This document shows, piece after piece, positions 38,262-55,151 of a DNA stretch of 64,000 nucleotides. Source of the DNA: Phycisphaerae bacterium. GTDB lineage: Bacteria; Planctomycetota; Phycisphaerae; UBA1845. The notes under the pieces were generated by a model. The model was given only the letters and a program-made list of their open reading frames with translations. It was not told where the DNA came from and searched no databases. The number at the start of each line of letters is the position of its first letter. The first letter of the stretch is position 1. The translations under genes and the position numbers were made by a program. The stretch spans positions 1,536,001 to 1,600,000 of the forward strand of contig CAXXGO010000001.1 in NCBI GenBank assembly GCA_963666835.2. Direction: 5' to 3'.

Positions 38262-38822
38262 ATGGCCCGACTTGATGTAGACCCGAACCGGTGGATGGAA
38301 CGGCCGCAGATCGCGCAGGAGACCCACGCGCGGATGGCGGACGAGGGGATCATCCTCGCTGCTTCGGACAGAGGCGGCCGGCTTAATCCCATGACGATCG
38401 GGTGGGGCGTGTTCGGTTGGATCTGGGGCCGCCCGGTGTTCACGGTTCTGGTTCGGCCGTCGCGTTATACGTACGAGTGCGTTGAGGCCACCGGCGATTT
38501 TACTGTGAACGTTCAGCCGGCGGATCGGCGCGATCTGGCCGATATCTGCGGGGCATCATCGGGACGCGACAGGGACAAGATGGCGGATCTGGGTTTGACC
38601 ACACTGCCCAGCCGGAAGATTACGAGCCCCGGAATCGCCGAGTGCCCGATCGTCTTCGAGTGCATGGTCGTCCATTGCAACGACGTCCTTCCCCCGGAAC
38701 TGGCCGCGGACATCACGCGCACGTATTACACGGATGGGGACTTTCACCGTTGCTACTACGGGGAGATTCTCAATATCTCCGTTGACCGGGACAAGTTCGA
38801 CTGCGGATGGGACGCGTGTTGA
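38262..38822 (+). CDS. Flavin reductase-like protein
   Basis: NPMTIGWG, VRPSRYTYE, ICGASSGRDRDK, FHRCYYGEI. Confidence 0.88.
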   Translation: MARLDVDPNRWMERPQIAQETHARMADEGIILAASDRGGRLNPMTIGWGVFGWIWGRPVFTVLVRPSRYTYECVEATGDFTVNVQPADRRDLADICGASSGRDRDKMADLGLTTLPSRKITSPGIAECPIVFECMVVHCNDVLPPELAADITRTYYTDGDFHRCYYGEILNISVDRDKFDCGWDAC

Positions 38823-38901
38823 AAAAGGGAGACGGCTCCGAGCCGGTTTCTACTTACGGTATCAGAAGACCCCTTCGGCGAGTTGCCTGTGCCTTTCTTC
38901 A
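38819..38901. repeat. Second, inverted and diverged copy of the 94-bp element
   Basis: TTGAAAAAGGGAGACGGCTCCGAGC...TTCGGCGAGTTGCCTGTGCCTTTCTTCA matches the reverse complement of 30184-30267. Confidence 0.75.
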
Positions 38902-38940
38902 TTACGGGTGGAGAATCCGGCAGATTGGGAGGATTGAATT

Positions 38941-39450
38941 GTGGAAGTGCTTGACGTTATCACCAAACGGTGCAGCGTTCGCTCTTACTCAGACCGTGCC
39001 GTGGAACGCGACAAGATCGACCGGTTGCTCGAAGCGGCGCGGCTGGCGCCGTCGGCCAGCAACCGGCAGGAGTGGCGGTTTGTGGTGGTCACCGATCACG
39101 ACATGCGCAACGCTCTCATGGAGGCGGCGAGCCGGCAACCGTTTGTTGCGCAGGCGCCGGTGGTCATTGCCGCGTGTGCCCAGACCGACGGGCACGTAAT
39201 GCGTTGCGGGCAGCCGTGCTATCCAATCGATGTCGCTATTGCCGTTGACCATATCACGCTCCAGGCGGTGGCGGAGGGGTTGGGTACTTGCTGGATCGGG
39301 GCGTTCGATGAGATTCAGGTCAAGGAGCTTCTGGCCATTCCGCAGGACGTTCGGGTCGTGGAGCTTCTGACGGTGGGCTATCCGGCAGGCGGACGGCCGC
39401 AACGCTCCCGCGTGCCGATGGACCGGATCGTCCATTGGGAGAAATGGTAG
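38941..39450 (+). CDS. Nitroreductase family protein
   Basis: RCSVRSY, APSASNRQEWRFVVV, GLGTCWIGAF, VGYP. Confidence 0.93.
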   Translation: MEVLDVITKRCSVRSYSDRAVERDKIDRLLEAARLAPSASNRQEWRFVVVTDHDMRNALMEAASRQPFVAQAPVVIAACAQTDGHVMRCGQPCYPIDVAIAVDHITLQAVAEGLGTCWIGAFDEIQVKELLAIPQDVRVVELLTVGYPAGGRPQRSRVPMDRIVHWEKW

Positions 39451-39461
39451 GGCTGCTCCCC

Positions 39462-40202
39462 TCAGAGATGGTTCACCCAGATGGCGGCCGGAATCGATGC
39501 GATCAGCAGAAACGCCGCTATCACATCCGCACGGGACACAGTTACTTCACGCAGGAAGGTGCGGTGGCGATGGAGACCGAAAGCTCGGCCCTCCATCGAT
39601 AGCGAGAGCGAATGGGCGGTGCGCAGAGCCGATACCAACAGCGGCAAGCAAAGGTGACGCAGGATCAGCCCCCAGCGACGCGGACCCCGGGCGTCGTAGG
39701 CGACCCCACGCACCAACTGGGCCTGATAGACGTTGTGGGCTTCCACGCGGAAGATCGGGGCCAGGCGCAGCGCTGTGACCAGCGTGAACCCCCAACGGTA
39801 GGGCAATCCAGCGCGCATCAGACCGCACGCCAGAGAGACCGGGTCGGTGGTGACCACGAATAGAGTGCTCATCAGCACGACGGCCAGCAGGCGACCTGCC
39901 GCACGGGTACCCGAGGTCAAGCCGGCGTCGGTGGCCGGTCCGAAGACCGGGTTCCCGCCACTGCCGGACAGGGAATGAGTCGCAAAGATTACGAGTCCGA
40001 GGGTCAGCCAAACCCTCTTGCCCGGGATACGCCACGGGGCGACCCCCGCGGTCCACAGCAGCACTATCGCAAGCCCCATGCCGATTAGCGGGGCGGCGGT
40101 CGAACTGGAGGCGAACACGATGATCGTTCCCCATGCAAGCCAACCGAGCTTCACCAGGGGGTGAAGACCGTGGGTGACTGACTTACCGGGCTGATAGTCC
40201 AT
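39462..40202 (-). CDS. ecfT: ECF transporter T component
   Basis: LHPLVKL, TTDP, ALRLAP, conserved Arg motifs QLVRG and SMEGRAF. Confidence 0.9.
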   Translation of the reverse strand: MDYQPGKSVTHGLHPLVKLGWLAWGTIIVFASSSTAAPLIGMGLAIVLLWTAGVAPWRIPGKRVWLTLGLVIFATHSLSGSGGNPVFGPATDAGLTSGTRAAGRLLAVVLMSTLFVVTTDPVSLACGLMRAGLPYRWGFTLVTALRLAPIFRVEAHNVYQAQLVRGVAYDARGPRRWGLILRHLCLPLLVSALRTAHSLSLSMEGRAFGLHRHRTFLREVTVSRADVIAAFLLIASIPAAIWVNHL

Positions 40203-40205
40203 CGT

Positions 40206-41765
40206 TTATCCTGAAGCCGTCTCATCCGCAGTCGGATTACTTACCGACGGCGCGTACGCGCCAAATCCCATCTTTCGGAGCTGCTCGAAGGCCGCGTGGA
40301 CCGGTGCGTCGATGATTATGCGCCCGCCGGCTATGAATAGCACGCGCGTACAGGCTCGGACAACGACTCGCGGGTCATGGGTTACGAGCAAGCCTGCGCC
40401 CCATTGCGGCTTGCCGGCATCTTGGTCGCCATTCAAGGCGTCTTGGAGCTTGCCGCCGATCGTATCGAGCATAAGCGTTATATTGCGCGAGTCCTGCCCG
40501 GCGAACGGCTCGTCCATCAGGAGCAGCCGGGGGTGGTGCAGGATTGCCGAGATCAGGTTGAGCCGCCTTTTCTGCCCCCAGCTCAGCCGGTAGGGATGGT
40601 CCTCGCTCCGAGCGGCAAGTCCGGCAGTCTTCAGAAGACGAGCAGCCTCCGGTTCTTCTGCCGTGCCGGGTGGTTTGAGGTTACGCACGGCGAACAGCAA
40701 CTCACTCCAGACGGTGTCGGCCACCAGTTGGTGATCGGCGTTTTGAAACACCATGCCGACACGTTGAGCCAGGCGCGAGACCGCCACGGGGGTGACATCC
40801 ATATCGCACACGCGAATCGAGCCACGGACCGGTTGCACCAGGCCCATCAGGCAACGCAACAGGGTCGATTTCCCGCCGCCGTTGGGACCGAGAAGGGCCA
40901 CGACCTCACCCGGTCGGATAGTAAGGTCGATATCCTGGAGGATCGTGCTTCCGCCTAGTTCAACGGTAGTGTCCGACACTTCAACCAGCGGTTGTGCCGT
41001 GATTTCGACCCGAGTGCTAAGGTCGTTGCCCAGGCGTCCCGGATCCGGGTCCGCCAGGTACGACGGGCATACGTTTGACACGGCATCCCCACGCAGATCG
41101 GTAACGACCTGCCCTTCCTCCAGAACGACCAAACGCGGCTTCAGGGGAAGCAGATGGGCGAGCTTATGTTCTACAATGACCACGGTGAGTTTCTTCTCGC
41201 GGCACAACGCTGCCAGCGTGTGAAACAGGTCGCGGGACGCCTGGGGGTCGAGACTGGCGGTCGGTTCATCGAGAATAAGAGCCTCCGGATGACCCGCAAC
41301 CACCGAAGCGACGGCGACGCGTTGCTGCTCTCCGCCGGACAGCGTGGCCAGCGTCCGCCCGGCAAGGTGGGTGATCGACAGCAGCTCCATTGCTTCCGCG
41401 CGGCGTGCCAGGATCTCGTCCACCGGCAGGCCGCGGTTTTCCAGCCCGAAGGCGACCTCGTCATCGACGGTCAGAGTGGCGAAATGGGCTTCCGGGTTCT
41501 GTTGGACCAGAGCGATACTCTCGGAAACTTGGTGAAGGGGGGTGGTGAGGACATCGTGATCCGCAATGCGGATGCTGCCCTCAGTGTCGCCGGCGTGTCT
41601 TCCCACGAGGAGTCCGCAGGCGGCCAGTGCCAAAGAAGTTTTGCCGGATCCACTAGTGCCGGCGATTGCGACGAACTCTCCGCGGGCAATCTGCAGGGAG
41701 ACTTCGCGCAGCGCCCAGCATTCCGAGCCCTCGAAACGCCATCCGAATCGGTCGAGGTGGATCAT
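40206..41765 (-). CDS. ECF transporter tandem ATPase (A-A' fusion)
   Basis: Two ABC domains: GTSGSGKT/QNPE/LSGGEQQR and GPNGGGKST/FQNADHQ/LSWGQKRR. Confidence 0.92.
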   Translation of the reverse strand: MIHLDRFGWRFEGSECWALREVSLQIARGEFVAIAGTSGSGKTSLALAACGLLVGRHAGDTEGSIRIADHDVLTTPLHQVSESIALVQQNPEAHFATLTVDDEVAFGLENRGLPVDEILARRAEAMELLSITHLAGRTLATLSGGEQQRVAVASVVAGHPEALILDEPTASLDPQASRDLFHTLAALCREKKLTVVIVEHKLAHLLPLKPRLVVLEEGQVVTDLRGDAVSNVCPSYLADPDPGRLGNDLSTRVEITAQPLVEVSDTTVELGGSTILQDIDLTIRPGEVVALLGPNGGGKSTLLRCLMGLVQPVRGSIRVCDMDVTPVAVSRLAQRVGMVFQNADHQLVADTVWSELLFAVRNLKPPGTAEEPEAARLLKTAGLAARSEDHPYRLSWGQKRRLNLISAILHHPRLLLMDEPFAGQDSRNITLMLDTIGGKLQDALNGDQDAGKPQWGAGLLVTHDPRVVVRACTRVLFIAGGRIIIDAPVHAAFEQLRKMGFGAYAPSVSNPTADETASG

Positions 41766-42502
41766 GGCAGCGCCGCAGACTGGATGGAGGACGTTTCCGG
41801 GTCTGGCGAGGGGCTATTCGGTGGGGCATCGGCGCGCGAAGATGCCAGGTAGATTACCGCGATGGTCAGAGCCACCGCCGCCGCGGAATACCCCACATCG
41901 GTCCAGCGGCGGCCGGCGGTCGGTTTAGCCGGGCTCATCCCCAACGTGCCGATTACGCCGGCGGTGTGCAGAGTTCGGAGCAGCCACCACCCGAGCACTC
42001 CGGCCAGCAGAGTCCCGCTGGCGAAGGCAACGAAGGCCAATGTGGTCAGGGCGGTGCTTACCTGCCCTTTCGCATTGAGTGAGGCGGCGCAGGATAGGAC
42101 GAGGACATTACTGGCGGTCCCGGCCCCGCCGGCGAGTATGAACGTCAACACGTGATGACGCCGGGCGAGAAGCAACCACACCAGGTCTACGGTGACGCCC
42201 GCCACCACGCAGTAGGCCATAACGGGCAAGCCGAGGGGACTCCCCGACAGCAGCTCGACCGAGCCCTTAAGTACGCCGGTTATGGTCGCGGCGCCGGGCT
42301 TGCGCACCAGCCCCACGGCCAGCACCAGCCAGAGAACGTGTACGCCCGCCGCCGGTTGCGCGCCTACCGGAATGACGATGACGGAGTGCATCGCGGCGCG
42401 GATATTGCTTACCGCTGCGCCGGACACGCCACCGAGAGCGGCCAGCGCCGCCATGACGAGCAACTCGTGCAAGGAGAAGAACTGACGTGGCGGCTGGCTC
42501 AT
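41762..42502 (-). CDS. ECF transporter S component (YkoE-like), substrate unknown
   Basis: 6-7 TMs, LLVMAALAALGG, LVRKPGAA, operonic with ECF A and T. Confidence 0.82.
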   Translation of the reverse strand: MSQPPRQFFSLHELLVMAALAALGGVSGAAVSNIRAAMHSVIVIPVGAQPAAGVHVLWLVLAVGLVRKPGAATITGVLKGSVELLSGSPLGLPVMAYCVVAGVTVDLVWLLLARRHHVLTFILAGGAGTASNVLVLSCAASLNAKGQVSTALTTLAFVAFASGTLLAGVLGWWLLRTLHTAGVIGTLGMSPAKPTAGRRWTDVGYSAAAVALTIAVIYLASSRADAPPNSPSPDPETSSIQSAALP

Positions 42503-42517
42503 ACCTTTCGCTCGAGG

Positions 42518-43063
42518 CTATGGCTTTGGCTCAAACGTAATCCGGCTGACGTTTCTAATCCAGTAGTCCCCGGCCTTCTTCGGGGGGATCAACTTGATGG
42601 GACGCTTGGGAGTCTTGTCGGCCAGCCAAACGCCCTCGCCGGTCTGCAGGGCTACGACGGCGTATTCAAGGTCGTCGCGGGTGCACTCTTTCTGGTAACC
42701 GTCCGAAGCTTCGACGATTACGGTCATAGGGCCGGGCTTGATGCCGGCTTCGGCCGTAAGGTGCGCCAGGGCCGGACCGCGCCAGCTTTCGACTCCGTCC
42801 GGACCGTGGGACCTCAACTGCTTGACTTCGTTGAGGTTCACCATCGGCATGCGGGCCATCTCTGCGAAGGTGAAGGACCTGGGGCTGGCAAGTCCCGAGC
42901 CGGCAAGTTCGAGCGTCCAGGTTATCTGAGGGATCTCCATCATTGACTCCGATTGTCCCGCGGTCGTTGAAGCGCCGCCCATCCGAGGCGTTGCGCACCC
43001 AGATAACACCAAAATGCCGATAGATGCAAATCCGATTGCCGGCGTCAGGCCGAACGACTTCAT
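42518..43063 (-). CDS. Lipoprotein with sulfite-oxidase-type molybdopterin-binding fold, lacking the canonical Mo-ligating Cys
   Basis: LSGC lipobox; WTLELAG...PRSFTFAEMARMP, WRGPALAHL, ASDGY, PIKLIPP...YWIRNVSRI. Confidence 0.72.
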   Translation of the reverse strand: MKSFGLTPAIGFASIGILVLSGCATPRMGGASTTAGQSESMMEIPQITWTLELAGSGLASPRSFTFAEMARMPMVNLNEVKQLRSHGPDGVESWRGPALAHLTAEAGIKPGPMTVIVEASDGYQKECTRDDLEYAVVALQTGEGVWLADKTPKRPIKLIPPKKAGDYWIRNVSRITFEPKP

Positions 43064-43081
43064 ATCATTCCTCTCGTACGG

Positions 43082-44254
43082 TTACTCGATTTCGAGAATC
43101 CGGAGCAAGTTAACGTAGTCCAGCAGGTCTACGTCTCCGTCGTAGTCCAGGTCCATCATCAGGCAGTGCTGAGTCGGGTGTCCGAAGTCGGGCCGGGCCC
43201 ACGCCGGCGGATCGCATCCCTCGCCGGCGGGGTCGCAGAGCGGCCCGGTGAGGCACTCGGCGAACCTGGCCAGGTCGCTTCCACTATCGACCTCTCCGTC
43301 GTTGTTGCCATCGCCGCAGATAGCCAGGTCCGCCGAGCTCAGAGTGATGAGCTGGTAGTAATCGTAGCCCGTGTCCGGGTTTGTGTATTGTTCGAACAGG
43401 CCTGTTACCGCGCAGAAGTGCCGTCCTTTCTCAATGAAAGGGTGGTAATCTTCCCAAGAGTCCTTGTCGGCGTTCATGTAGTCGGCGGCCCAGCAATCAT
43501 CCCCGTCGGGCGTCTGCAGGTTGTAGTTGTCGTTCTCTTTGCCCAGGTTCCATTCGGTGATCGTGACATTCCGCACAGTTAAACGCATCGCCTCGAGTGG
43601 TTCGGGGTCGTGATTCTCCACGTACCACTCGTCACCCGGGTATTGCAGAGGTGCCGGGATGCGCGTAACCGGGCATAGAATCGGTGGCGGCAGCGGGTTA
43701 TTTCGGCTGACGATCGTGCATGTGGGACTATTGATGGGGTACCATTGCAGAAACGTGCCTCCCCGATGCTCTTCCACCTCAATGTCCGTAATCGTCACCC
43801 AATCGCCTACGCGGATATTGTCGTACAAACCGGGTCCGCCCGTCCAGTCCTTGGCCTGGATGCCGCCCCAGGCATCCGGATGGCTGGGGTCCTGCAGCAT
43901 AATCCGGGGACGGTATCCCGGGAACTTGCCGATCACGATACCCCCGGCGAAATCGATCAGCTCTCCGTCGTATACGCTGACGTCGCCGTCGAACGTGTTG
44001 GATTGGAGCTCGTAGATCGTGAGGGGATCGGCTGAGACGGCATTGGCCGCCGGAGCCGGGGCCCACAGGGCGGCGGCGACGATCAATGCCGCTCCGATGG
44101 ACGTGAGGTTGCCTTTCCTCCCCGACTCACCAAGGAAGGGGGAGGGGAGGTTTGTCTCCGTTTGCCCGCCCGCCCCTCTTTCCCTCCTCGGCAAAGGGGG
44201 AAGAGTCCCGACCGATCTGTATCGAAACGGCAGTAGCAGCTTCTTTCCGCGCAT
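43082..44254 (-). CDS. Secreted protein with one conserved module plus dockerin-like C-terminus
   Basis: LTIYELQSN...WGGIQAKD...WAADYMN...YDYYQL; tail GDGNNDGEVD...DLDYDGDVDLLDY. Start uncertain. Confidence 0.78.
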   Translation of the reverse strand: MRGKKLLLPFRYRSVGTLPPLPRRERGAGGQTETNLPSPFLGESGRKGNLTSIGAALIVAAALWAPAPAANAVSADPLTIYELQSNTFDGDVSVYDGELIDFAGGIVIGKFPGYRPRIMLQDPSHPDAWGGIQAKDWTGGPGLYDNIRVGDWVTITDIEVEEHRGGTFLQWYPINSPTCTIVSRNNPLPPPILCPVTRIPAPLQYPGDEWYVENHDPEPLEAMRLTVRNVTITEWNLGKENDNYNLQTPDGDDCWAADYMNADKDSWEDYHPFIEKGRHFCAVTGLFEQYTNPDTGYDYYQLITLSSADLAICGDGNNDGEVDSGSDLARFAECLTGPLCDPAGEGCDPPAWARPDFGHPTQHCLMMDLDYDGDVDLLDYVNLLRILEIE

Positions 44255-44392
44255 TCTTTCGTTTACCTCGTCAGCCCGCCTGTTGCGGGAGATTATGAAG
44301 ATCTTTCAGGGGTCGATGCCGCAAGCTCAAGTTTCCGCATGCCACTGATGTGGCACGGTTACCGATTCGTGAACTTGGTCAATAGATCCATA

Positions 44393-45292
44393 CTACGCGA
44401 CGCTCGTTTGCCGGCGGGTGTACAAGACAGTTCCCGCCGTCAGCAGCAACAGTAGCATCACGATAGCCCCCCACGCTGACACGGTGGGGACGCCGTCGCC
44501 GTGCTCTGCAATATCCGCCGCCGATGCCGTGCAAAGCTGATAGTAGTCCCAGTCGGTATCCGGGTTCTTGTACTGTTCGAGCATGCCGGTCACGCTGGCG
44601 AAGCTCGCCCCGGTGACGATACGCGAGTCGTATTCGTTGGGGGGCTCGAGGTCGGCATTCATGTAGTCCGCCGCCCAGAGCAGGTCGCTGTCCTGGCTCA
44701 GTTCGTAGTTATCCGCGGCTTTGCCAAGCCCCATTTGCGCGACGGTGACGTCGCCGACGGTCACGCGCATGGCCTCATAGGGTTCAGCGTCGTGATTCTC
44801 CACGAACCAGCCGCCCGTCTCGTCGTCGTAAACCGGGGCGGGGATCTGGCTTGCCGTCAGGGCGATCGGCGCGGGCAGGGGGTTCCCCTGGCTGACGACC
44901 GTGAAACCGGGAGTGTACGGGGGCTGCCAGTGCAGCATGGTGTTACCCCGATACTCCTCCACGAGCATGTTGGTCAGGCTAACCCAATCTCCGATCTCGA
45001 CATTGTTGTAGAGTTCGTCGTTTGTCCAGTCTTTGACCTGAATTCCTCCCCAGCCGGTCGCATTCGCCGGATCCTGCAGGGCGATGCGATACCGGTAACC
45101 GGGGAACTTGCCGACGACGATTCCTCCGACGCAGTCGATAGTCTGCGTGTCGTAAACGCTGGCATCGCCGTCGGTGGTGTTGGACTGAAGCTCATAGATC
45201 GTAAGCGGGTCGGCCGATGCCGGGGCGGCGCATGCGGCGATTCCCGTCAGCCCCAACATCCCCCAGGCGATTGATCTGCAGATTCCGGACAT
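44393..45292 (-). CDS. Secreted protein with one conserved module plus IPTL-CTERM
   Basis: Signal peptide, same module, VPTVSAWG plus TM plus RR tail; GGAG RBS. Confidence 0.85.
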   Translation of the reverse strand: MSGICRSIAWGMLGLTGIAACAAPASADPLTIYELQSNTTDGDASVYDTQTIDCVGGIVVGKFPGYRYRIALQDPANATGWGGIQVKDWTNDELYNNVEIGDWVSLTNMLVEEYRGNTMLHWQPPYTPGFTVVSQGNPLPAPIALTASQIPAPVYDDETGGWFVENHDAEPYEAMRVTVGDVTVAQMGLGKAADNYELSQDSDLLWAADYMNADLEPPNEYDSRIVTGASFASVTGMLEQYKNPDTDWDYYQLCTASAADIAEHGDGVPTVSAWGAIVMLLLLLTAGTVLYTRRQTSVA

Positions 45293-45325
45293 GGTCTCCT
45301 CTCCTTCGCTGTAAAGCACGAAACG

Positions 45326-45373
45326 GCCGACCGATCCATCGCCTCCTTTATTGAAGGCGACGAATCGGTCGGC
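45326..45373. other. Intergenic hairpin inside the operon (possible mRNA stabiliser or attenuator)
   Basis: GCCGACCGAT..TCGCCT / AGGCGA..ATCGGTCGGC inverted repeat. Confidence 0.45.
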
Positions 45374-45405
45374 ACGCTCGCCTTATCTACTCAAGCCGCT
45401 TAATG

Positions 45406-47622
45406 TCAATCGCAATGCACACGGCGGCCATTCCCGAAGTTCACCTTGGCCGCGGTGATAAGCAGCAGGGCCAGGATAGCCAAGCCCCACTCTGATACGG
45501 TCGGGATAGTCCCCATCGACTCGAGGTCGTCGGCCGACCGTGTACACACCTGGTAGTAGTCCCATCCGGCCGACGATTTCGTGTACTGCTCCACAATGCC
45601 CGTAATCCGGGGAAGCAGCGCGTCGGTGTGAATCCGTGGGTCGTACGGACCCCCGGCGTCGGTGTTCATGTAGTCGGTTGCCCAGGCGATGGTGCCGCTG
45701 CGGGTCACTTCGTAGTTGTCATCGGCCTTGCCCAGGTCCATCTGGCCGACGACGACGTTCTGCAGCGTCACGAGCATACTCTCGTAAGGCTCGGTCAGCC
45801 CGTGGTTAGGGGGGTAAACCAAGTCTGCCGGATCCAGCAGTTTGGGCGCCGGGACGGTGTTCCCGCTGCTCTCCACGGTGAAGCTGACGTTCGGGGAGTA
45901 ACTCGTCCGATACTGCAGGAACGTCGTACCGCGGTACTCTTCCACGAAGATGTTCTCGAAGCTGATCCAATCTCCGACGGACACGTTGTTGGAAAGCGCT
46001 CCGCCTTGGCCGTCTTTGACGACGATGGCGCCCCAGGTCGACTGACCCGGATCGCGCAGGTACACGCGGTCGTTGAATCCCTGCCAAACGTGCGTCACTA
46101 CGCCGCCTACGACGTCGACAATCTGATCCGCGTAGGGTGAATCCCCGTTCGGATCCGTGGTGTACTGGATTTCCGCGATGGACAGCGGTGGCGGCACCGG
46201 CACGATGTCGGCGGCCGAGCGGCTGAGTAGTTGATAGTAGTCCCATCCGGAAGACGTCTTGGTGTATTGCTCGACGACTCCGGTGACGCTCTGCAGCTTG
46301 GCTCCGGGGAAGACCCGCGGGTCGTACGGTGCTCCGGCGTCGACGTTCATGTAGTCACTGCCCCACGCCAGATCACTACCCTGGAACAGCTCGTAGTTGT
46401 CTCCCGCCTTGCCCAGATCGATCTGGCCCACGATGGGGCCGACCAGCTTGACTACCATGCTCTCGTACGGCTCACTCGCCGCGTGATCGACCAGCACCGG
46501 GAGGTCCTCTACGCTCAGCTCGGTTACCTCGGGAACCTCGTTACCGGTGCTCTCGATGGTAAAGCTGACGTTCGGAGAGAAACTCGTTCGATACTGCAGG
46601 AACGTGGTCCCCCGGTACTCCTCCGCCAGGATGTTCTCGAAGCTGACCCAGTCTCCGACGGATACATTGTTGGAAAGCGCTCCGCCCTCGCCGTCTTTCA
46701 CGACGATTGCGCCCCAGGTGGGCTGGGCCGGATCGCGCAGGTACACACGGTCGTTGAACCCGTGCCAGATATGAGTCACCACGCCGCCCACAACGTCGAT
46801 GATCTGATCCGCATAGGGCGAGTCCCCGGCCGGGTCCGTGGTGTACTGGATGTCGTAGATGGACAGCGGCGCCGGTACCGGCACGATGTCGGCGGCCGCA
46901 CGGCTGAGCAACTGGTAGTAATCCCATCCGGAGGACGTGTTGGTGTACTGCTCGACGATTCCGGTGATGCTCTGCAGCTTGGCCCCGGGGAAGATCCGCG
47001 GGTCATACGGAGCTCCGGCGTCGACATTCATGTAGTCACTGCCCCACGCAAGATCACTACCCTGGAACAGCTCGTAGTTGTCCTCGGCCTTACCCAAATC
47101 GATCTGGCCCACGATGGGGCCGACCAGCTTGACGATCATGCTCTCGTACGGCTCACTCGCCGCGTGATCGACCGGCACCGGGAGGTCTTCAACACTGAGC
47201 TCGGTTACTTCGGGAACCTCGTTACCGGTGCTCTCGACGGTAAACGCGACGGCCGGGGCGTTCGCGCGATCGAACTGCAGGAAGGTTGTCCCCTTGCTTT
47301 CTTCGATCAGGATGGCGTCGAAGCTGACCCAGTCGCCGATTTCGACTCCGGCGATCAAATCACCTTCGGAGTCCTTGACGCAGATGGCTCCCCAGGTCGG
47401 TTGGGTGGGATCCTGCAAGTACACCCGGTCTCGAAAGCCCGACCACTTGTGAATCACGACGCCGCCGGTCACGTCGTGGATCTGTCCGTCGTAACTCGAT
47501 GCATCTCCGTCGGTGGTGTTGGATTGGATTTCGTAGATTGACAGCTCTGCCGCTTCCCCGACGCCCGCCCAACTAGCCGCGGCTGCCAGAGCCAAGGCGA
47601 ACATCAGACAGTCCCGTTTCAT
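45406..47622 (-). CDS. Secreted protein with three tandem ~227-aa modules plus IPTL-CTERM
   Basis: Signal peptide; three LSIxxIQ...WGAI.VKD...EPYESM...DYMN...WDYYQ modules; IPTVSEWG plus TM. Confidence 0.9.
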   Translation of the reverse strand: MKRDCLMFALALAAAASWAGVGEAAELSIYEIQSNTTDGDASSYDGQIHDVTGGVVIHKWSGFRDRVYLQDPTQPTWGAICVKDSEGDLIAGVEIGDWVSFDAILIEESKGTTFLQFDRANAPAVAFTVESTGNEVPEVTELSVEDLPVPVDHAASEPYESMIVKLVGPIVGQIDLGKAEDNYELFQGSDLAWGSDYMNVDAGAPYDPRIFPGAKLQSITGIVEQYTNTSSGWDYYQLLSRAAADIVPVPAPLSIYDIQYTTDPAGDSPYADQIIDVVGGVVTHIWHGFNDRVYLRDPAQPTWGAIVVKDGEGGALSNNVSVGDWVSFENILAEEYRGTTFLQYRTSFSPNVSFTIESTGNEVPEVTELSVEDLPVLVDHAASEPYESMVVKLVGPIVGQIDLGKAGDNYELFQGSDLAWGSDYMNVDAGAPYDPRVFPGAKLQSVTGVVEQYTKTSSGWDYYQLLSRSAADIVPVPPPLSIAEIQYTTDPNGDSPYADQIVDVVGGVVTHVWQGFNDRVYLRDPGQSTWGAIVVKDGQGGALSNNVSVGDWISFENIFVEEYRGTTFLQYRTSYSPNVSFTVESSGNTVPAPKLLDPADLVYPPNHGLTEPYESMLVTLQNVVVGQMDLGKADDNYEVTRSGTIAWATDYMNTDAGGPYDPRIHTDALLPRITGIVEQYTKSSAGWDYYQVCTRSADDLESMGTIPTVSEWGLAILALLLITAAKVNFGNGRRVHCD

Positions 47623-47695
47623 AGCTACCCTCCGTACTCAGCGTGTTTCTCGCGATGGTCGACCGAGCCTACTCGGACGACATACTCGCGTAGGT

Positions 47696-48565
47696 TCATC
47701 TCTTCTTCCGCGTTCGTCGCGTGGCGTCGTCTGCGACCTTGATTTCTTCAGGTGCCGGGTAGGGATACCAGTTGATATCATCCCGCGGCGGAAGTTCCTG
47801 ATCCGCGTCCCATTCATCCTTCCAGACGCGGGTGCGCAATTCCGTGTGGCCGTCGGCATACAAGAGGTTACCCCCAAGCCCGGATTGCCCTTGGCGGTGC
47901 CGGGCGGAGAACGACTTGGGATAACTTCCGCTGTGCTTACCCGCGCCTCGGTAGGTGATCTTCCCGTCAAAACCCTTGCGCGGATCCAGCAACTGATCGA
48001 ACATTACGATGGTTCGCTGTGGGCATGTGATTCTCGCGGAATCCAGAAACGACGGCATCGGGTAGCCCAGGCTATCCGGAGGAGGCCACGCATTCCGATC
48101 CAGCTCCAGACACGAGTTCATCGAGTAGCTGAAGTAGCCGTCCCGCTCCGGGCGATAGCTGTATACCTCGCGTCCGCCAATCGGCACTGCGGAAGGACAC
48201 TGGAAGAACGTGCTGTCGTCCGGACGCTCGAATCGCGGATGGTCTCGCCAAGCGGGCAGATCCAGCATGGGAGGAAGAACGTCCGCCCAGCCGTGCCAAT
48301 CGGCCACGTCTTCTTCGCTGACACGCGGATGGTCCAATGCCCGCGGGCCTCGATCAAGCCCGTCGCAGTGCGGATAATACCCTGCGTTCTCGGCTGCGTA
48401 GCACGTGAACGCGACGCCCCATTGCTTCATGCGAGAAGCACATACCACCTGCTTGGCCTGGGCTCTGGCGGCACTTAGCGACGGCGACAGAATGGCCAAC
48501 AACAGCGCCACAATCGCTATGACCACGAGCAGCTCGATCAGCGAGAAACCTGCCCTTGGGTGCAA
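47696..48565 (-). CDS. Prepilin-type N-terminal cleavage/methylation protein, DUF1559 / H-X9-DG-CTERM type
   Basis: GFSLIELLVVIAIVALLLAILSPSLSAAR...C..RMKQWG; FFQCPS; RH...GNLLYADGH. TTG at 48565 preferred because ATG 48598 lies inside the -10 element. Confidence 0.88.
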   Translation of the reverse strand: MHPRAGFSLIELLVVIAIVALLLAILSPSLSAARAQAKQVVCASRMKQWGVAFTCYAAENAGYYPHCDGLDRGPRALDHPRVSEEDVADWHGWADVLPPMLDLPAWRDHPRFERPDDSTFFQCPSAVPIGGREVYSYRPERDGYFSYSMNSCLELDRNAWPPPDSLGYPMPSFLDSARITCPQRTIVMFDQLLDPRKGFDGKITYRGAGKHSGSYPKSFSARHRQGQSGLGGNLLYADGHTELRTRVWKDEWDADQELPPRDDINWYPYPAPEEIKVADDATRRTRKKR

Positions 48566-48578
48566 TTCGGCCTTAAAC

Positions 48579-48602
48579 CGTTGTGTTTTGTGGAGCATAT
48601 CG
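48579..48602. promoter_or_regulatory. Putative ModE box 1 (repressor position)
   Basis: CGTTGTGTT-N6-AGCATATCG; matches box 2 and the ModE-type CGNTAT...ATANCG palindrome; overlaps the -10. Confidence 0.68.
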
Positions 48603-48622
48603 CGATGCAAAAAAAAAGACAA
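48594..48622 (-). promoter_or_regulatory. Sigma70-type promoter of the pilin-surface protein-ECF operon
   Basis: Minus strand TTGTCT-N17-TATGCT. Confidence 0.68.
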
Positions 48623-48780
48623 CCACTCGCAAACACCCGCCGCGCCAGGCGATGGACCAACCTGCGTCTTTTTCCTGGCGCAAACGATCCGGGAATAGTG
48701 TATCATAGCGTCCGATAGGGCGGCAATAGGGTTTCTTTGGTTTTTTGGGACCCGCCCAAGCGATTCTCAGGGTCTGCGCC

Positions 48781-49299
48781 GTGGGCATCACGATCGTCTC
48801 AGCCGGCAAGGGTGAAGGTAAGACCACGTTCCTGTGTGAGAGCGCGGCTCGGCTAGCGGCGCTGGGGCGAACGGTGGGTGGGATCGCCTCACCCGCAGTG
48901 TTCGAGGATGACCGCCGGGTCGGGTATGACCTCTTGGACCTGAGGGCGGGCAACCGCAGACGGCTTGCCCAGGTCGCGAAATCCTCGACGGCCACTAATA
49001 CTGTAGGAATGTATCGTCTAGGGGACGCGGCCGTGACCGAGGGGAACATCAGCATCATCTCGGCCGTGCGGGACCGCCTGGACGTCGTCATTCTCGATGA
49101 GGTCGGCCCGCTGGAGTTTCGGGGGGGCGGCTGGGCGCCTGCTTTGGAGGTCGCGCTGCGGGAATGTTCGCCGGGGCAGGAGCTGATTATCGTGGTTCGG
49201 CCGTCGCTTGTGGATGAACTGCCCAAGCGCTTTCCGTCCGACATGTGGGCCTCTGCCGAGCGGATCTCTCCACCCTGGCCTGCCTCGCTGTGGCGGTGA
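48781..49299 (+). CDS. P-loop NTPase (THEP1/NTPase_1 or DUF2478-like)
   Basis: GKGEGKTT, VGGIASP, RVGYDLLDL, VILDEVGPLE, IVVR. Confidence 0.82.
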   Translation: MGITIVSAGKGEGKTTFLCESAARLAALGRTVGGIASPAVFEDDRRVGYDLLDLRAGNRRRLAQVAKSSTATNTVGMYRLGDAAVTEGNISIISAVRDRLDVVILDEVGPLEFRGGGWAPALEVALRECSPGQELIIVVRPSLVDELPKRFPSDMWASAERISPPWPASLWR

Positions 49300-49447
49300 C
49301 CAAAGCCGGCTATGCCGTTCTTATTACGCCCCTTCTCATAGAGTGAGCGGGTTCCTTCATTTGACGCTACGGCCTCAAGCCGGGAAGCTGTGGGCGAACA
49401 AGTGCGCTCAAGCCGCGGTGGCTCGAGCCCGGTTCGCGGAGGAGCAA

Positions 49448-49891
49448 GTGACCAGAAACCACCCCGGTCCCCGTAGGCCTCAGACGCATTCCGAAGACGA
49501 GCCCGAAAACAAGGGCTGGGAGGGACGTTTGCGCCTTTGGGTCGCGGTCAATGGGCACAATGCCCTCGGGCCCGGCAAGGTTCGATTGCTCGAAGCGATA
49601 GCCAGGACCAGTTCATTGTCGGCGGCCGCAAAGGACCTGCGGATGAGCTACCGATTGGCGTGGCAGCACCTGCGAGTGATTGAGGAACGAACGGGTTTAA
49701 CGGTCGTGGAGCCCCAGCGCGGCGGCCCGAGCGGGGGCGGCACCGATCTAACGCCGGAGGGTCGGGCGCTGCTCAAGGCGTACGACAGTTTCCGGCGGGA
49801 GGTCGAGGAGTTCATGGACTCGGCCTGCGCCCGACACTTCTCGGCGTGGGCGCCGCCACCGGGCGGAGAGTCCGACTCTGACTCAGAGTAG
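49448..49891 (+). CDS. modE: ModE-family winged-helix regulator (DNA-binding domain only)
   Basis: LGPGKVRLLEAIARTSSLSAAAKDLRMSYRLAW...RGGPSGGGTDLTPEG; GTG start after GGAG; no TOBE domain. Confidence 0.88.
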   Translation: MTRNHPGPRRPQTHSEDEPENKGWEGRLRLWVAVNGHNALGPGKVRLLEAIARTSSLSAAAKDLRMSYRLAWQHLRVIEERTGLTVVEPQRGGPSGGGTDLTPEGRALLKAYDSFRREVEEFMDSACARHFSAWAPPPGGESDSDSE

Positions 49892-49902
49892 TAGACGAAG
49901 CG

Positions 49903-50556
49903 CTACGCGGACGCACCGGAAGAGGAACCGGCTATTGCTGCGCGCAGACGTGCGACCATTGCCGGTGGCGGTGGGGCTGTTGCCAAGTCGGCCAGCCACG
50001 TGAAACGCGGGCGAAGCGTGGGATACTCGCGTACGAGCCGGTCGGCCTCGGTTGCCGCCAGGCTGGTCGGCGCATTGATGAGCAAGTCCGAGACGAGCGG
50101 CAGAACGGTCTCGGTACTCGGCTTCATTTCCTTTGGCGGGGGGCGGACGATCAAAATGACGGCAACGGGTCGCAGCAGCCGCACAGCGCTGGAACTCTCG
50201 ACGATGATCGGTGTGTCTATGGGGAAGAGGTCGAGGGCGTGTTGCAGCCCAGGGTCGAGTCCGGCACCCTCGTGCCGGAGGATCTCGACCTGTTTCGCCC
50301 CGGCTTGCAGGTATTGCTCCGTATCCATGCCCACCCGGTCGAGATCGGCGGAATCCTCCATGAAGTACCGCCCGGCGCCGGCTTGATCTGCAGGCGTTCT
50401 TGCGTCGTGGCGTCTGTGAAGAGGGCGGACCTTCAGGCATCCCAGACCTCCCCCGAGGCAGCGGAGCAGCCGCGTCACGAAGACGGTCTTTCCAGAACCG
50501 GAGTGCGGTCCGATGACCGAGAGAATCGTTCTGCTCGTCGCGGCAGATCCGCCCAT
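49903..50556 (-). CDS. MobB-like P-loop protein
   Basis: ILSVIGPHSGSGKT, GCLKV, DTEQYLQAGA, IIVESSS; starts immediately after the fdhD stop. Confidence 0.65.
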   Translation of the reverse strand: MGGSAATSRTILSVIGPHSGSGKTVFVTRLLRCLGGGLGCLKVRPLHRRHDARTPADQAGAGRYFMEDSADLDRVGMDTEQYLQAGAKQVEILRHEGAGLDPGLQHALDLFPIDTPIIVESSSAVRLLRPVAVILIVRPPPKEMKPSTETVLPLVSDLLINAPTSLAATEADRLVREYPTLRPRFTWLADLATAPPPPAMVARLRAAIAGSSSGASA

Positions 50557-50557
50557 C

Positions 50558-51406
50558 TCAGTCCACCACCCGCTGGTATCCGGTATAGATATTCATCCGG
50601 CGACCACGAAGGAAGCCGACCACGGTGAGCCCGAAACGGCGAGCCCACTCCACCCCCATCGCAGTCGGCGCGGACGACGACGCGAGGATGGGGACGCCGT
50701 GGGCAACGGCCTTGCCGATGATCTCGGCCGAGACCCGACCGCTGGTGAGCGCGATCTTGTCTGACAGATCCAGCTTGCGTTGCACGGCCATTCCGGCCAC
50801 TTTATCGAAGGCGTTGTGGCGGCCGACATCTTCAGCGGTAAAAAGGAGACTTTCGGTGTCGGCAATGCCGCAGGCGTGTACCCCGCCGGTCAGGCGGTAA
50901 AGGGAGCTGGCGCGGCCGAACTCTCGCCCCCGAGCGGCAAGTTGCTCCGCAGAGATTGTGACGGGGTTGTCCAAAGGGCGGCAATCAGCCAGGCGGGACG
51001 GGTCACGGCCGGTCCCGCCGCCGCCGCATCCTGTTCCAAACGTCCACCTCCGATGGATTGCCTCCATGGCGTCATCGTCGAACAGCCCGGTGCATCTGAC
51101 TTGCCCGCTCTCGGTGTCGAAGCACACTTCCGGCATCTCCCGGCGGTCTCGGCACAGGCCCTCGGATATCAGGAATCCCAGAGCCAACGCCTCGACATCG
51201 CGCGGAAGCGCCAGCATAGCGAGAATAGGTGTATCGTTGACGACCAGCTCGATTCTGCGCTCCCGAATAAGCCGGTCGTTTACGGCCGTGCATTCTCCGG
51301 AGGGTGAATACCGGCGAATCGGCCATGCGATCATCTGATCTGCGTCGGCGGCATCGTTTGGTGGCGGTCCATCCACGTTTTCTTCGAGATGCTCGTTCTC
51401 TGTCAT
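50558..51406 (-). CDS. fdhD: Formate dehydrogenase accessory sulfurtransferase FdhD
   Basis: LALGFLISEG, GTGCG, TGGVHAC, EDVGRHNAFDK, TSGRVSAEI, SAPT. Confidence 0.95.
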   Translation of the reverse strand: MTENEHLEENVDGPPPNDAADADQMIAWPIRRYSPSGECTAVNDRLIRERRIELVVNDTPILAMLALPRDVEALALGFLISEGLCRDRREMPEVCFDTESGQVRCTGLFDDDAMEAIHRRWTFGTGCGGGGTGRDPSRLADCRPLDNPVTISAEQLAARGREFGRASSLYRLTGGVHACGIADTESLLFTAEDVGRHNAFDKVAGMAVQRKLDLSDKIALTSGRVSAEIIGKAVAHGVPILASSSAPTAMGVEWARRFGLTVVGFLRGRRMNIYTGYQRVVD

Positions 51407-51718: not shown

Positions 51719-51742
51719 GGTTATGTTCAGGGAAGCATAACG
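51719..51742. promoter_or_regulatory. Putative ModE box 2 (upstream, activator-like position for fdh)
   Basis: GGTTATGTT-N6-AGCATAACG palindrome in the fdhD/fdnG divergent spacer. Confidence 0.7.
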
Positions 51743-51780: not shown

Positions 51781-51809
51781 TTGACGCTGGTAGATGCGGT
51801 GTCTAAGCT
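51781..51809 (+). promoter_or_regulatory. Sigma70-type promoter for the fdh operon
   Basis: TTGACG-N17-TAAGCT. Confidence 0.6.
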
Positions 51810-52094: not shown

Positions 52095-55000
52095 ATGCTA
52101 TTGACACGCAGAGAATTCCTTAAGACTTCTGCGGTTACCGCCGGGGTCGCCGTCACCGGGATGGGCTTTGCGCTCAGTCCGGTGAAAGCGCACGCGGCGG
52201 AACTCCGCAAGAATCTCGAGGAGGCTACGCAAACGACGACTATATGCCCGTATTGCGGTTGCGGGTGTGGGTTTGTCGTGCACGCCTCGGGCGGCAAGGT
52301 CATCAACATCGAGGGCGATTCCGAGCACCCCATCAATCAGGGTACGGCATGCTCGAAGGGGTCCGCGTTGTTCCAGATGGCCGGTGGAAACAACGAGAAC
52401 CGTTTGCAGACGGTGCGCTACCGTGCACCGAATGCAACCGAGTGGGAGGAAGTGAGTTGGGAGTGGGCGGTGGAGCGTATCGCACAGCGGGTCAAGGAAA
52501 CTCGCGACGCGACGTTCGAGACGGTCAACGCTGCCGGCAATACGGTCAACCGCACGCTGGCGATCGGTTCGTTGGGTAGTGCCGCTCTCGATAACGAGGA
52601 GTGCTGGCTCTATCAGAAGATGTTGCGTGCCCTCGGCCTGGTGTACATCGAACACCAGGCGCGGAACTGACACTCTGCCACAGTCTCCAGTTTGGCGACT
52701 TCGTTCGGCAGAGGGGCCATGACTAACCACTGGATCGACATCGGCAACAGCGATGTCATCCTGATCATGGGATCCAACGCAGCAGAGAACCATCCGATCT
52801 CGATGCGTTGGGTGAACAAGGCTCGCGAGAGCGGGGCCAAGATGATCCACGTCGACCCCCGGTTCACCAGAACTTCGGCGGTTGCGGACATCTATGCATC
52901 GCTTAGAAGCGGGTCCGACATTGCGTTCTTGGGTGGGATGATCAATTACATCCTTGAGAACGGGTATATTCACGAGGAGTACGTCAAGGAATATACGAAC
53001 GCCAGTTTCCTGATTAATGAGGATTTCGCGTTTAACGACGGGTTGTTCAGCGGCCACGACGGCGATAGGACCTACGATACGACGACGTGGGCTTTCCAGA
53101 CGGACGCCGACGGGGTTATTGTCAAGGACAAGACCCTTGAGGATCCCAACTGCGTTTACCAGTTCCTCAAGACGCATTATTCTCGCTACGACCTGGAGAC
53201 CGTATCAGGCATCACCGGTACTCCCGAGGACAAGCTTCAAGAGGTCTACGAGGCCTACGTTGGCGCGTGCTACGAACCGGGTAAAGCCGGAACGATCATG
53301 TACGCGATGGGCTGGACCCAGCACACGGTCGGTGCTCAGAACATCCGGGCAATGTCGATCGCCCAGTTGTTGTTGGGCAACATCGGCGTGTCGGGCGGCG
53401 GAGTCAACGCTTTGCGCGGTGAGTCCAATGTGCAGGGCTCCACGGACCAATGTCTGCTGTACCATATTCTGCCGGGTTACCTCAAGAGTCCGCAGGACAA
53501 CTGGACGGATCTGGACACATATAACGAGTCGGCGCGGGCGCTTACGACGCTCGAACCGCGCAGCGCCAACTGGTGGAGTCATACGCCGGAGTATATAGCC
53601 AGCTTCCTAAAGGCCATGTACGGCACCGAGGCTACGGCGGACAACGACTTCGCGTATAGTTGGCTGCCGAAGCGCGATGCCGGGGTCAATTATGCGTGGC
53701 AGCCGATGTTCGATGCCATGTACAAGCAGGAGGAGGGGAAGGAGATTAAGGGCTTCTTCGCCTGGGGGCAGAACCCCGCCTGCAGCAGCGGTAACGTCAA
53801 CAAGATCCGGGCCGCCTTGGCCAAGCTGGACTGGTTGGTGTGCGTCAACATCTACAGCACCGAAACCTCGGAGTTCTGGCGCGGGCCTGACATGGACCCG
53901 GAGAACATCGCTACTGAGGTGTTCGAGCTGCCCGCAGCCGCGTCGTTCGAGAAGGAAGGCAGCGTCACCAACTCGGGCCGGTGGGCTCAGTGGCGCTATG
54001 CGGCGATTGACCCTCCGGGCGATGCGAAGCCGGACGCGGAGATTATGAACGATCTGTGGATCGCCATCACCGGGCTCTACGAGGCGGACGGTGAATTCCC
54101 CGATCCGATTCTCGGCTGCAAGTGGGATTACTTTGACGGGCCGGACATCCCAACCGTCATGCTTGCCAAGGAAATCAACGGGTACAACCTTGACGCGGAC
54201 GGCAATCCCACCGGACTGGTTGACAAGTTCACCTTGCTGGCGAGTGACGGGACGACGTCTTCGGGTAACTGGCTCTACTGCCAGTCGTACAACGAAGACG
54301 GCAACAACATGGCTCGGCGCACTGTGGAGACCGAGGGTATCGGTTTGAACGCCGAGTGGGCGTGGTGCTGGCCGATCAATCGCCGGATCATCTACAACCG
54401 CGCCAGCGTCGATTTGCTGGGGCAGCCGTACGATGAGGATCACCCGGTCATTACCTGGAACGGAACCGGCTGGGACGGTGATGTTCCGGACGGTGGTTGG
54501 GCTCCGATGAACAACGAGGACGGGACGGAGAATCCGGATTCGAAGTTGCCCTTCATTATGCAGACCAACGGGGTAGCGCAGGTCTTCGGTAATATGACGG
54601 ATGGTCCGGTCCCCGAGCACTATGAACCGCTGGAGTCGCCGTTGACGGAAAACCCGATGACGGGCAACTCGCAGCGGTTGAATCCGGCAGTATACGTGCC
54701 TCCGGCCGACGAGATGAACGCGGTAGCCACGCCGGGAGGTACGGACTACCCGATCATCTGTTCGACGTACCGGGTGACCGAGCACTGGCAGAGCGGGGTG
54801 ATGACGCGGTGGATACCCTGGTTGAACGAGCTTCATCCGGACATGTTTGTCGAGATGTCGGAAGAGCTTGCTGAAGAGAAGAGCATCACCAACGGTGAAT
54901 GGGTCAAGGTGAGTAGTGCTCGCGGTGAGGTTCGGGCGGTGGCTGTCGTTACGAAGCGCTTCAAACCGTTCACTATCGAGGGCAATACGGTTCATCAAGT

Positions 55001-55151
55001 CGGAATACCGTGGTGTTACGGCTGGGTTGCACCGCTGATGGACAAGACTCGGGCGAGTAGCGCCAATCTATTGAGTCCGAACGTCGGCGATCCGAATACC
55101 CGAATTCCGGAAAGCAAGGCCTTTATGGTCAATATTGAGAAGGAGGCTTAG
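52095..55151 (+). CDS. fdnG: Selenocysteine-containing periplasmic formate dehydrogenase alpha subunit (1018 aa; TGA 52668-52670 read as Sec)
   Basis: Tat signal TRREFLK; CPYCGCGC...CSKG; IEHQARN-TGA-HSATVSSLATSFGRGAMTNHW in one frame, joining the two listed ORFs at the conserved Sec-His site. Confidence 0.96.
52671..52713 (+). promoter_or_regulatory. Bacterial SECIS hairpin
   Basis: CTCTGCC...GGCAGAG outer stem, AGTC/GACT and CCA/TGG inner stems with a G-containing apical loop, directly after the UGA. Confidence 0.8.

Follow-up and report, generated by a model that had tools for sequence, protein, structure and literature searches.

A candidate salvage importer for the molybdenum/tungsten cofactor, centered on an energy-coupling factor transporter, in Phycisphaerae and Anaerolineae

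What would an energy-coupling factor (ECF) transporter import when its genes share an operon with a pilin-like protein, modular surface proteins and a lipoprotein of the sulfite oxidase (SUOX) fold, back to back with a formate dehydrogenase locus? The question is raised by a 64,000-nucleotide stretch of DNA, hereafter the window, from the Phycisphaerae bacterium assembly GCA_963666835.2 (contig CAXXGO010000001.1, positions 1,536,001-1,600,000). An earlier reading made from the sequence alone, without database searches (hereafter the sequence-only reading), had proposed that the operon takes up molybdenum or tungsten (Mo/W) or a pterin cofactor. Our analysis of the genomic evidence indicates that it is probably a salvage importer of the Mo/W-pyranopterin cofactor (Moco or Wco), its transport and binding functions being predictions. 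The basis for this proposal is that the neighboring formate dehydrogenase (FDH) needs bis-MGD (bis-molybdopterin guanine dinucleotide), and that no pterin-making or metal-inserting genes were found in the host genome. To our knowledge, prokaryotes have so far been taken to depend on their own synthesis for Moco.

The operon comprises eight closely spaced, co-oriented genes on the minus strand (39462-48598; intergenic gaps, by rising coordinate, of 3, -4, 15, 18, 138, 113 and 73 nt), just as the sequence-only reading had laid them out. Its promoter-distal half codes for the SUOX-fold lipoprotein (42518-43063; PF00174, 30 bits against a cut-off of 24), the S component of the YkoE family (41762-42502; PF09819, 61 bits, with one extra C-terminal hydrophobic segment), the A-A' double ABC ATPase (40206-41765; Pfam and NCBIfam) and the T component of the CbiQ family (39462-40202; 88 bits). 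The Pfam matches, together with a structural model for the lipoprotein fold, bear out the earlier labels for these four genes. The S and T components and the two ATPase domains are thus all encoded in one operon, as group I ECF importers require, and the S, T and lipoprotein genes are single-copy in the host genome. No periplasmic oxyanion-binding protein with an ABC permease of the ModABC, TupABC or WtpABC type is encoded in the operon.

The host genome (G000; 6.0 Mb, 92.3% complete) was surveyed for its Mo/W gene content. Family searches that were each positive in 11 of 14 control genomes recovered no moaC, moeA, moaA or moaE from it, and its single PF00994 match is to a protein that, by its sequence, we take to be CinA. 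The TupA, TupB, WtpA, MoaC and MoeA proteins of relatives, when used as queries, retrieved no orthologue from this genome; ModA was likewise not found, the binding-protein matches reading as PstS, iron-type or AcfC-like proteins and the two best lacking a ModA match. These absences, on which the sequence-only reading had suggested a check, favor salvage. Two SBP_bac_11 proteins of the same genome (C1:1000158-1001402 and C6:928853-930154) lack adjacent permeases, are not ModA by NCBIfam, and bear a C-terminal extension that is presumably DsrE-like. A MobA-like gene (best matches MobA, below cut-offs) and an AOR-like (aldehyde:ferredoxin oxidoreductase) ORF lie elsewhere in the genome, and the sulfurtransferase gene fdhD (50558-51406, minus strand; Pfam and NCBIfam) stands near the operon. 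Hence, the host keeps the late cofactor steps and a client enzyme, and genes for pterin synthesis and metal insertion were not found. The client is FdnG, the Tat-signal-bearing alpha subunit of formate dehydrogenase-N (52095-55151, plus strand), whose gene has an in-frame TGA (selenocysteine) at 52668. It appears intact, because at the identical codon three of four homologues likewise have TGA and the fourth has Cys, and because a tRNA-Sec is encoded in the genome. Also encoded there (C1:151441-155163) is a 1241-aa protein that joins GltD-like, ferredoxin and FDH/NuoG-like domains.

To establish the wider context we compared 161 loci: L181, and the 80 best matches to an S-component alignment from each of two sets, 155 genome loci and 231 metagenome loci, whose organisms overlap. 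Among these, the T gene is present in 109, the lipoprotein in 75, the NTPase that adjoins the window's operon in 26, the surface-protein module in 23, the pilin in 14 and fdhA in 7. The Phycisphaerae loci retain the window's gene order. In the Anaerolineae operons, S-AA'-T stands with SUOX-fold lipoproteins, a protein bearing a CXXCH motif and, in 55 loci, a lipoprotein of the PF01663 phosphodiesterase family; tupB occurs in 10 Anaerolineae loci, moaC in 5 and enzymes of the xanthine dehydrogenase (XDH) family in 5. Given that S is fused to a PF00174 domain in L066, and that such PF09819-PF00174 fusions make up 5 of the 98 S homologues listed, the lipoprotein domain is tied to the S component. 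The CXXCH (cytochrome c-like) protein is membrane-anchored and without a Pfam or NCBIfam hit (L073:10320-11237 and 69 other loci); it sits after T in most Anaerolineae operons and in the Phycisphaerae locus L033, and could keep the cofactor reduced.

Rfam identifies the Moco/Wco riboswitch RF01055 in four of four Anaerolineae loci and none of three Phycisphaerae loci, and, in 17 of 20 further loci, upstream of S and on its strand. Two cobalamin riboswitches were detected among those 20 loci on the strand opposite S, whereas the Moco switch abuts S; no thiamine pyrophosphate (TPP) riboswitch was found in the window or in the 27 loci scanned. A profile built from six of the Moco RNAs matched 102 of 120 non-Phycisphaerae loci, in 86 of them no further than 400 nt upstream of S, and had no match in the host genome. 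The homologous operons are thus linked to Mo/W genes and to Moco rather than TPP riboswitches, so that the cofactor reading passes the genomic checks that had been proposed for it. In E. coli the response of the Moco RNA depends on MoeA (excerpts of PMC2408646), so molybdate alone is not its signal. Together with the ModE-type site described below, this places the transporter under Mo/W-cofactor-type control in two phyla. Tandem Moco riboswitches also stand ahead of a small unannotated protein ending in CQLGLF and of lipoproteins with SUOX domains, on the strand that faces the ECF operon, in five loci (L048:16532-17230, L036, L115, L121 and L134). The Firmicute version in Anoxynatronum (L085 and L088) has SLH-anchored and large multi-SUOX-domain proteins, a metallophosphoesterase and an XDH-family enzyme; a Moco RNA and a palindrome-like site both lie upstream.

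Does possession of the transporter track loss of the biosynthetic pathway? We searched 52 carriers (G000, G197 and 50 of 80 genome loci), choosing all 16 best-scoring or non-Chloroflexota types and then mostly larger contigs. Among them fdhD is present in 38 and AOR in 42, with moeA in 31, moaC in 24 and moaA in 23. Both moaA and moaC are missing from 27, of which 18 also lack moeA and nine retain it; moaE was absent in all five tested of these nine. AOR and/or fdhD is present in 17 of the 18 carriers lacking all three genes (G224 has 14 AOR matches), and the 18th, G197, encodes an XDH-family enzyme and a MobA-like protein beside the operon. One of these, G208, is a single record of 3.79 Mb with FDH. 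In an even sample of 161 Anaerolineae, including the centre genome (11 strong S matches; 7 weak ones counted as non-carriers), AOR is present in 143 and moeA is missing in nine, namely 5 of 11 carriers as against 4 of 150 non-carriers. The four moeA-less non-carriers have both moaA and moaC, while the five moeA-less carriers have neither, such that all five sampled Anaerolineae without moaA, moaC and moeA carry the S component. Among 201 Phycisphaerae, a clear S match is seen only in G000 and G197; fdhD occurs in 47, and the 46 of these other than G000 include 40 with moeA and 39 with moaC. Thus, moaC is missing from 12 of 16 Phycisphaerae-type carriers (G000, G197 and G201-G214) versus 7 of 46 fdhD-positive non-carriers.

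Several observations weigh against this interpretation. The Fisher values of 5e-7 and 2e-5 overstate the association, as kin are not independent and completeness values cover a minority of the carriers; the host assembly is 92% complete. Moreover, moaC is retained in 24 of the 52 carriers, and for this reason the system is not confined to auxotrophs. Five Phycisphaerae control genomes lack both moeA and moaC (G125, G054, G063, G139 and G153). The last four have fdhD and yielded no S component to a single-protein query, no lipoprotein in the three of them searched, and, near fdhD, nothing similar to the G125 cassette described below. SUOX-like domains are elsewhere fused to TupA or adjoin WtpA: in three loci (L081:8177-9862, L084:8174-9853 and L060:18141-19820) the tungstate-binding protein TupA is encoded as a fusion with SUOX-like domains that lack Cys, and L184 has a tandem-domain SUOX-like lipoprotein beside WtpA. 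Finally, PruR, a close structural match to the lipoprotein, is said to be too small for Moco and is reported as unlikely to hold it (excerpts of PMC13259868).

A profile of S has YkoE (PDB 5edl) as its sole match among solved structures (E 1.6e-17), but of the YkoE thiamine ligands Trp49, Glu77, Gln95 and Tyr46 (as given in excerpts of PMC5037267), which align respectively to His, Glu, Ala and Ala, only Glu77 is kept. The lipoprotein model (pLDDT 86) matches SorA, SoxC, YedY and PruR, with a target-normalized TM score of 0.65-0.69 to PruR structures. Though it has the fold of the SUOX Mo-domain, it lacks a conserved Mo-ligating Cys, unlike enzymes of the sulfite oxidase family: in 48 aligned rows the lipobox Cys23 alone is invariant, and Cys127 is unconserved. 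Its own alignment reveals a conserved Trp168 (35 of 35 type-1 rows), Tyr123 (34 of 35), a D-G-Y motif and a K/R-S/T pair; Trp168 and Tyr123 are candidate counterparts of the pterin-stacking Trp and Tyr of PruR. PruR is a Cys-less SUOX-fold protein that binds small pterins (excerpts of PMC13259868).

The promoter-proximal half of the operon codes for a 300-aa pilin-like protein with an N-methyl prepilin motif (47696-48598) and three paralogous secreted proteins. The latter, as had been recognized, are related: together they contain five copies of a single module of ~235 aa that are 37-58% identical. Surface protein 1 (45406-47622) has, by domain scans, a signal peptide, three modules and an IPTL-CTERM-like anchor; surface protein 2 (44393-45292; alternative ORF start at 45319) has one module and an IPTL-CTERM-like tail; and surface protein 3 (43082-44254) has, by module comparison, one module and a C-terminal tail that we take to be dockerin/EF-hand-like and that is without a Pfam hit. 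A GC-rich imperfect inverted repeat (44096-44200) lies within the 5' end of the gene for surface protein 3, lengthening its signal region, and has one weak match elsewhere in the genome. The model of the module from surface protein 2 (pLDDT 92.5) comprises two OB domains, the best structural match being the OB domain of Teb1 (Z 12.2), with other matches to POT1 and RPA. No copy of this OB-OB module occurs elsewhere in the host genome. When the lipoprotein, or the module at longer lengths, served as query in a word-index search, the only proteins recovered were those of the window itself. At E < 1e-30, 72 clusters match the module, its distant relatives being secreted multidomain proteins. A scan of 25 long proteins out of 150 listed distant relatives turned up one Exo_endo_phos and one PLD domain, in a single protein each; a nuclease role was considered and rejected, the window's proteins having no catalytic domain. 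The module might bind a pterin-nucleotide.

The pilin belongs to a conserved orthologue group (mean column identity 65%), whose profile scores it at 525 bits as against no more than 80 for the other pilin-like genes of the host genome, which also has a prepilin peptidase homologue. Its assignment to DUF1559 is tentative: the N-methyl motif is present, but Pfam DUF1559 (PF07596) gives no hit on the window's protein, a weak one (E 0.015) in one orthologue, and matches in 31% of the members of the top Atlas cluster of look-alikes.

How is the Phycisphaerae operon controlled? A 24-bp palindrome with ModE geometry, CG-N-TATGCT-N6-AGCAYA-N-CG (48579-48602), comes shortly after a conserved run of T residues and overlaps the start codon of the pilin gene. 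Using a matrix from 12 homologue sites, with the window's own site excluded and two near-duplicates dropped, it is the top site of the 6 Mb genome at 31.8 bits, vindicating the ModE-type box of the sequence-only reading. The next site scores 19.3 bits and the one thereafter 15.9. The second-best is a further copy of the palindrome between fdhD and fdnG (51719-51742), 38 nt upstream of a promoter-like TTGACG-17-TAAGCT site (51781-51809) before fdnG, and this FDH-promoter palindrome recurs at the equivalent position in L021, L026 and L193. The operon palindrome is not a coding artefact, as it persists in two loci that have no pilin gene (L032 and L102); as a point on the other side, four short loci (L030, L101, L113 and L181) have no palindrome above 13 bits. 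Its 24-bp CG...CG spacing equals that of the E. coli ModE consensus, ATCGNTATATA-N6-TATATANCGAT (excerpts of PMC545781), whereas the half-site TATGCT differs from the E. coli consensus half-site.

The candidate reader of this site is the divergently encoded ModE-type helix-turn-helix (HTH) protein (49208-49891, plus strand; HTH in the last ~110 codons, true start uncertain), in which neither Pfam nor NCBIfam finds a molybdate-binding (TOBE/mop) domain, leaving a DNA-binding domain only. HTH-only ModE homologues are present in 15 Phycisphaerae operon loci, and HTH-only ModE proteins with unclear sensing have been noted before (excerpts of PMC545781). The operator suggests that such a protein may repress the operon; since this ModE is without the molybdate-binding domain, the repression claimed by the sequence-only reading is something that we infer.

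The promoter named in that reading (48622-48594) fared less well. This TTGTCT-17-TATGCT site was not reported by the consensus promoter scanner, its -35 is unconserved, and its -10 holds the in-frame ATG of the pilin, which starts inside the palindrome in 14 of 14 pilin-bearing homologues. Because the pilin starts within the box and a better-conserved promoter lies ~100 nt upstream, this site is probably not the principal promoter. It may serve as a secondary one, with use of the TTG of codon 12. The probable sigma70-type operon promoter (48697-48726, minus strand) has a -35 TTGCCG (48726-48721), an 18-nt spacer and a TG before the -10 TACACT (48702-48697). The consensus scanner did not report this site either; its TTGC-N17/18-TA..(C/G)T layout is found in about 9 of 14 aligned leaders as read by eye. 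A riboswitch in the window's leader was considered and rejected: Rfam reports none there, TPP included, and the predicted folding is no stronger than that of shuffled sequences (z -0.3; z < -2 in only 2 of 8 leaders). The window (48603-48625) and the homologous leaders share an invariant T run 5-9 nt before the palindrome; in the leaders of L025 and L128 the T run follows a strong hairpin resembling an intrinsic terminator, a fold not seen in the window's leader.

A variant from another family, G125, places part of this cassette in a different setting. Its fdhD region (L199:1700-5078) contains, adjoining an NAD-linked FDH, an HTH-only ModE, the palindrome, an orthologous pilin, an OB-OB module with a PEP-CTERM tail, a membrane protein and the NTPase, and here the palindrome covers a good -10 (TTGACT-17-TATGCT). 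The membrane protein neither aligns to the S profile nor has a Pfam hit, and no ECF T or ATPase is seen in the 14 kb contig; it could represent another kind of carrier for the cofactor. As the pilin, module and NTPase occur here with an unrelated membrane protein, they belong to the Mo/W regulon independently of the YkoE-like ECF. It is conceivable, and we offer this tentatively, that in Planctomycetes lacking the Moco pathway the pilin-like and exosortase-anchored tandem-OB proteins might form the surface or outer-membrane stage of a cofactor relay that would end in one of two unrelated inner-membrane carriers, with the sensor-less ModE perhaps reading cofactor status via a partner.

Taken together, these elements suggest the following scheme for salvage. 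At the cell surface, the exosortase-anchored OB-OB proteins and the pilin-like protein would gather the cofactor, as such or in fragments that carry it, and assist its passage through the outer envelope, this first step being the weakest of the scheme. The SUOX-fold lipoprotein would then bind the pterin non-catalytically and pass it to the S component, upon which the S-T-AA' complex would import it. The imported species would have to be metal-loaded in this host; in the nine moeA-only genomes it is perhaps reloaded by MoeA, and in Anaerolineae the PF01663 phosphodiesterase perhaps trims the cofactor from MGD. The MobA-like enzyme would add GMP, and FdhD would sulfurate the product for the enzyme. 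The HTH-only ModE would bind both copies of the palindrome: at the salvage operon, from a site downstream of the promoter, it would dampen expression, and at fdh it would act on the promoter from upstream.

Other substrates have to be weighed against the cofactor. We consider it unlikely that the system takes up a small pterin or early precursor (cyclic pyranopterin monophosphate, cPMP, or a neopterin-type molecule) to feed a partial or unknown synthesis route. Its appeal lies in the PruR-like size and fold of the lipoprotein, with the invariant Trp and D-G-Y motif, and in the nine carriers that retain moeA without moaA and moaC; yet moaE and moeA are missing from the host as well, leaving cPMP no way to mature, and the absence of moaE from each moeA-only carrier tested speaks likewise. 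Nor do we know of simple pterins as Moco precursors. Import of molybdate, tungstate or a metal chelate, which would make this a fourth importer beside Mod, Tup and Wtp, appears slightly less probable still. It would account for a host in which no mod, tup or wtp was found, for the Anaerolineae tupB genes and TupA fusions, and for ModE-type control, which classically governs oxyanion uptake (excerpts of PMC545781). However, metal alone would be useless to the 18 carriers without moaA, moaC and moeA, and many carriers have Tup within the same operon, where a second oxyanion importer would be redundant; further, the S component belongs to a vitamin-binding family and the MoeA-dependent Moco RNA would not be signaled by molybdate alone. 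With no moeA found to insert the metal, the bare-metal half of the sequence-only proposal is unlikely, and it is the cofactor half, the one which that reading preferred, that agrees with the missing synthesis genes.

An outward or local role, in which the complex delivers, recycles or stores cofactor for extracytoplasmic enzymes, fits the Tat signal of the adjoining FDH, the many carriers that make the cofactor themselves, and the AA_kinase-family genes of four loci, which we take to be molybdenum-storage-like. Nevertheless, ECF complexes are importers, and export could not explain retention of the system in genomes without synthesis genes, making this highly improbable. We see even less prospect for an ordinary thiamine/hydroxymethylpyrimidine (HMP) importer of the YkoEDC type, or a cobalamin importer, that lies near fdh by chance, with the loss of moa genes an assembly gap. 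Although YkoE is the closest solved S component, some homologues are titled thiamin/HMP permease, corrinoid genes lie near a few loci alongside the two cobalamin riboswitches, and the host assembly is incomplete, those two switches are antisense to S, the Moco switch abuts it, no TPP switch was detected, YkoE Trp49 and Gln95 align to His and Ala, and in the control sample the presence of the transporter goes along with loss of the synthesis genes.

The predicted cofactor importer shares features with several known systems without coinciding with any. With YkoEDC, the B. subtilis group I ECF thiamine/HMP importer, it has in common the S-AA'-T order, the fused double ATPase, the Pfam family of S and the invariant Glu77; it differs in lacking Trp49 and Gln95, in having a Moco riboswitch or ModE-type box instead of a TPP switch, and in its SUOX-fold, OB-OB and pilin-like partners. 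The lipoprotein shares its fold with PruR (7kos, 7kom, 7rkb), SorA and YedY, and with PruR also its small size, export and lack of a Mo-ligating Cys; unlike these proteins, to which it is 16-22% identical, its family is lipid-anchored or fused to S or TupA and, in contrast to PruR, is linked to ECF genes rather than a DcpA-type signaling enzyme. Relative to the ModE regulon with ModABC, TupABC or WtpABC, the operator spacing is shared and the palindrome marks both an uptake operon and a molybdoenzyme promoter, but the regulator is HTH-only, the transporter is of the ECF type, and no oxyanion system was found in the host. A further parallel is the cobamide scavenging relay (BtuB/BtuG-type proteins and CbrT-type ECF transporters), in which cells unable to make a complex cofactor catch it with surface proteins and regulate this by sensing the cofactor; here the cofactor differs, and a pilin-like protein stands in place of a TonB receptor, none of which was seen among the recurring neighbors of the Phycisphaerae loci. 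Ready-made uptake of stable, protein-bound Moco has been described in an animal, C. elegans, with no transporter named in the excerpted text (bioRxiv 10.1101/2020.10.08.332338). Our literature searches, covering sources other than subscription papers, found no Moco/Wco uptake assigned to an ECF system, and excerpts of PMC3766115, PMC7759655 and PMC13119186 mention no bacterial ECF import of it; this negative leaves out the supplements and RegPrecise lists of PMC2408646, PMC3766115 and PMC6147048, which may hold such genes. We would therefore describe the ECF core as a known kind of transporter with a putatively new substrate, and the ModE-type control with the pilin/OB-OB cassette as apparently new.

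The divergent NTPase_1/DUF2478-type P-loop NTPase (48745-49299, plus strand; likely start GTG at 48781) travels with the operon, and a MobB-like P-loop protein is encoded at 49903-50556 (minus strand). Thus, of the neighbors listed earlier, the NTPase, fdhD and the selenocysteine FDH stand as named, whereas the MobB-like match is weak and below cut-off, and modE amounts to an HTH domain. Beyond fdhE, a lipoprotein in which Cys-rich repeats accompany a cytochrome c3-like domain (56794-57381), conserved in L193, is the probable electron acceptor of the FDH. At the other flank, flavin-reductase-like and nitroreductase genes (38262-39450) converge on the operon end, the former having an equivalent position in L025 and L107.

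These predictions bear on a recognized puzzle. Peng et al. (2018) recorded 305 bacteria with molybdoenzymes but without a complete synthesis pathway (PMC6147048), for which the excerpted text proposes new synthesis genes or metal-free enzymes. If the operon is indeed a salvage importer, it would explain such orphan-molybdoenzyme genomes, make Moco/Wco a cross-fed cofactor in anaerobic communities in the manner of B12, and add a new substrate class to the ECF transporters; a Moco carrier and importer could, in addition, aid the loading of recombinant Mo/W enzymes. For the planctomycetes it would provide a first concrete task for one of their pilin-like proteins, and should the more tentative relay hold, it would represent a TonB-independent, pilin-mediated uptake of a metal cofactor, with a defined substrate for one DUF1559-like pilin.

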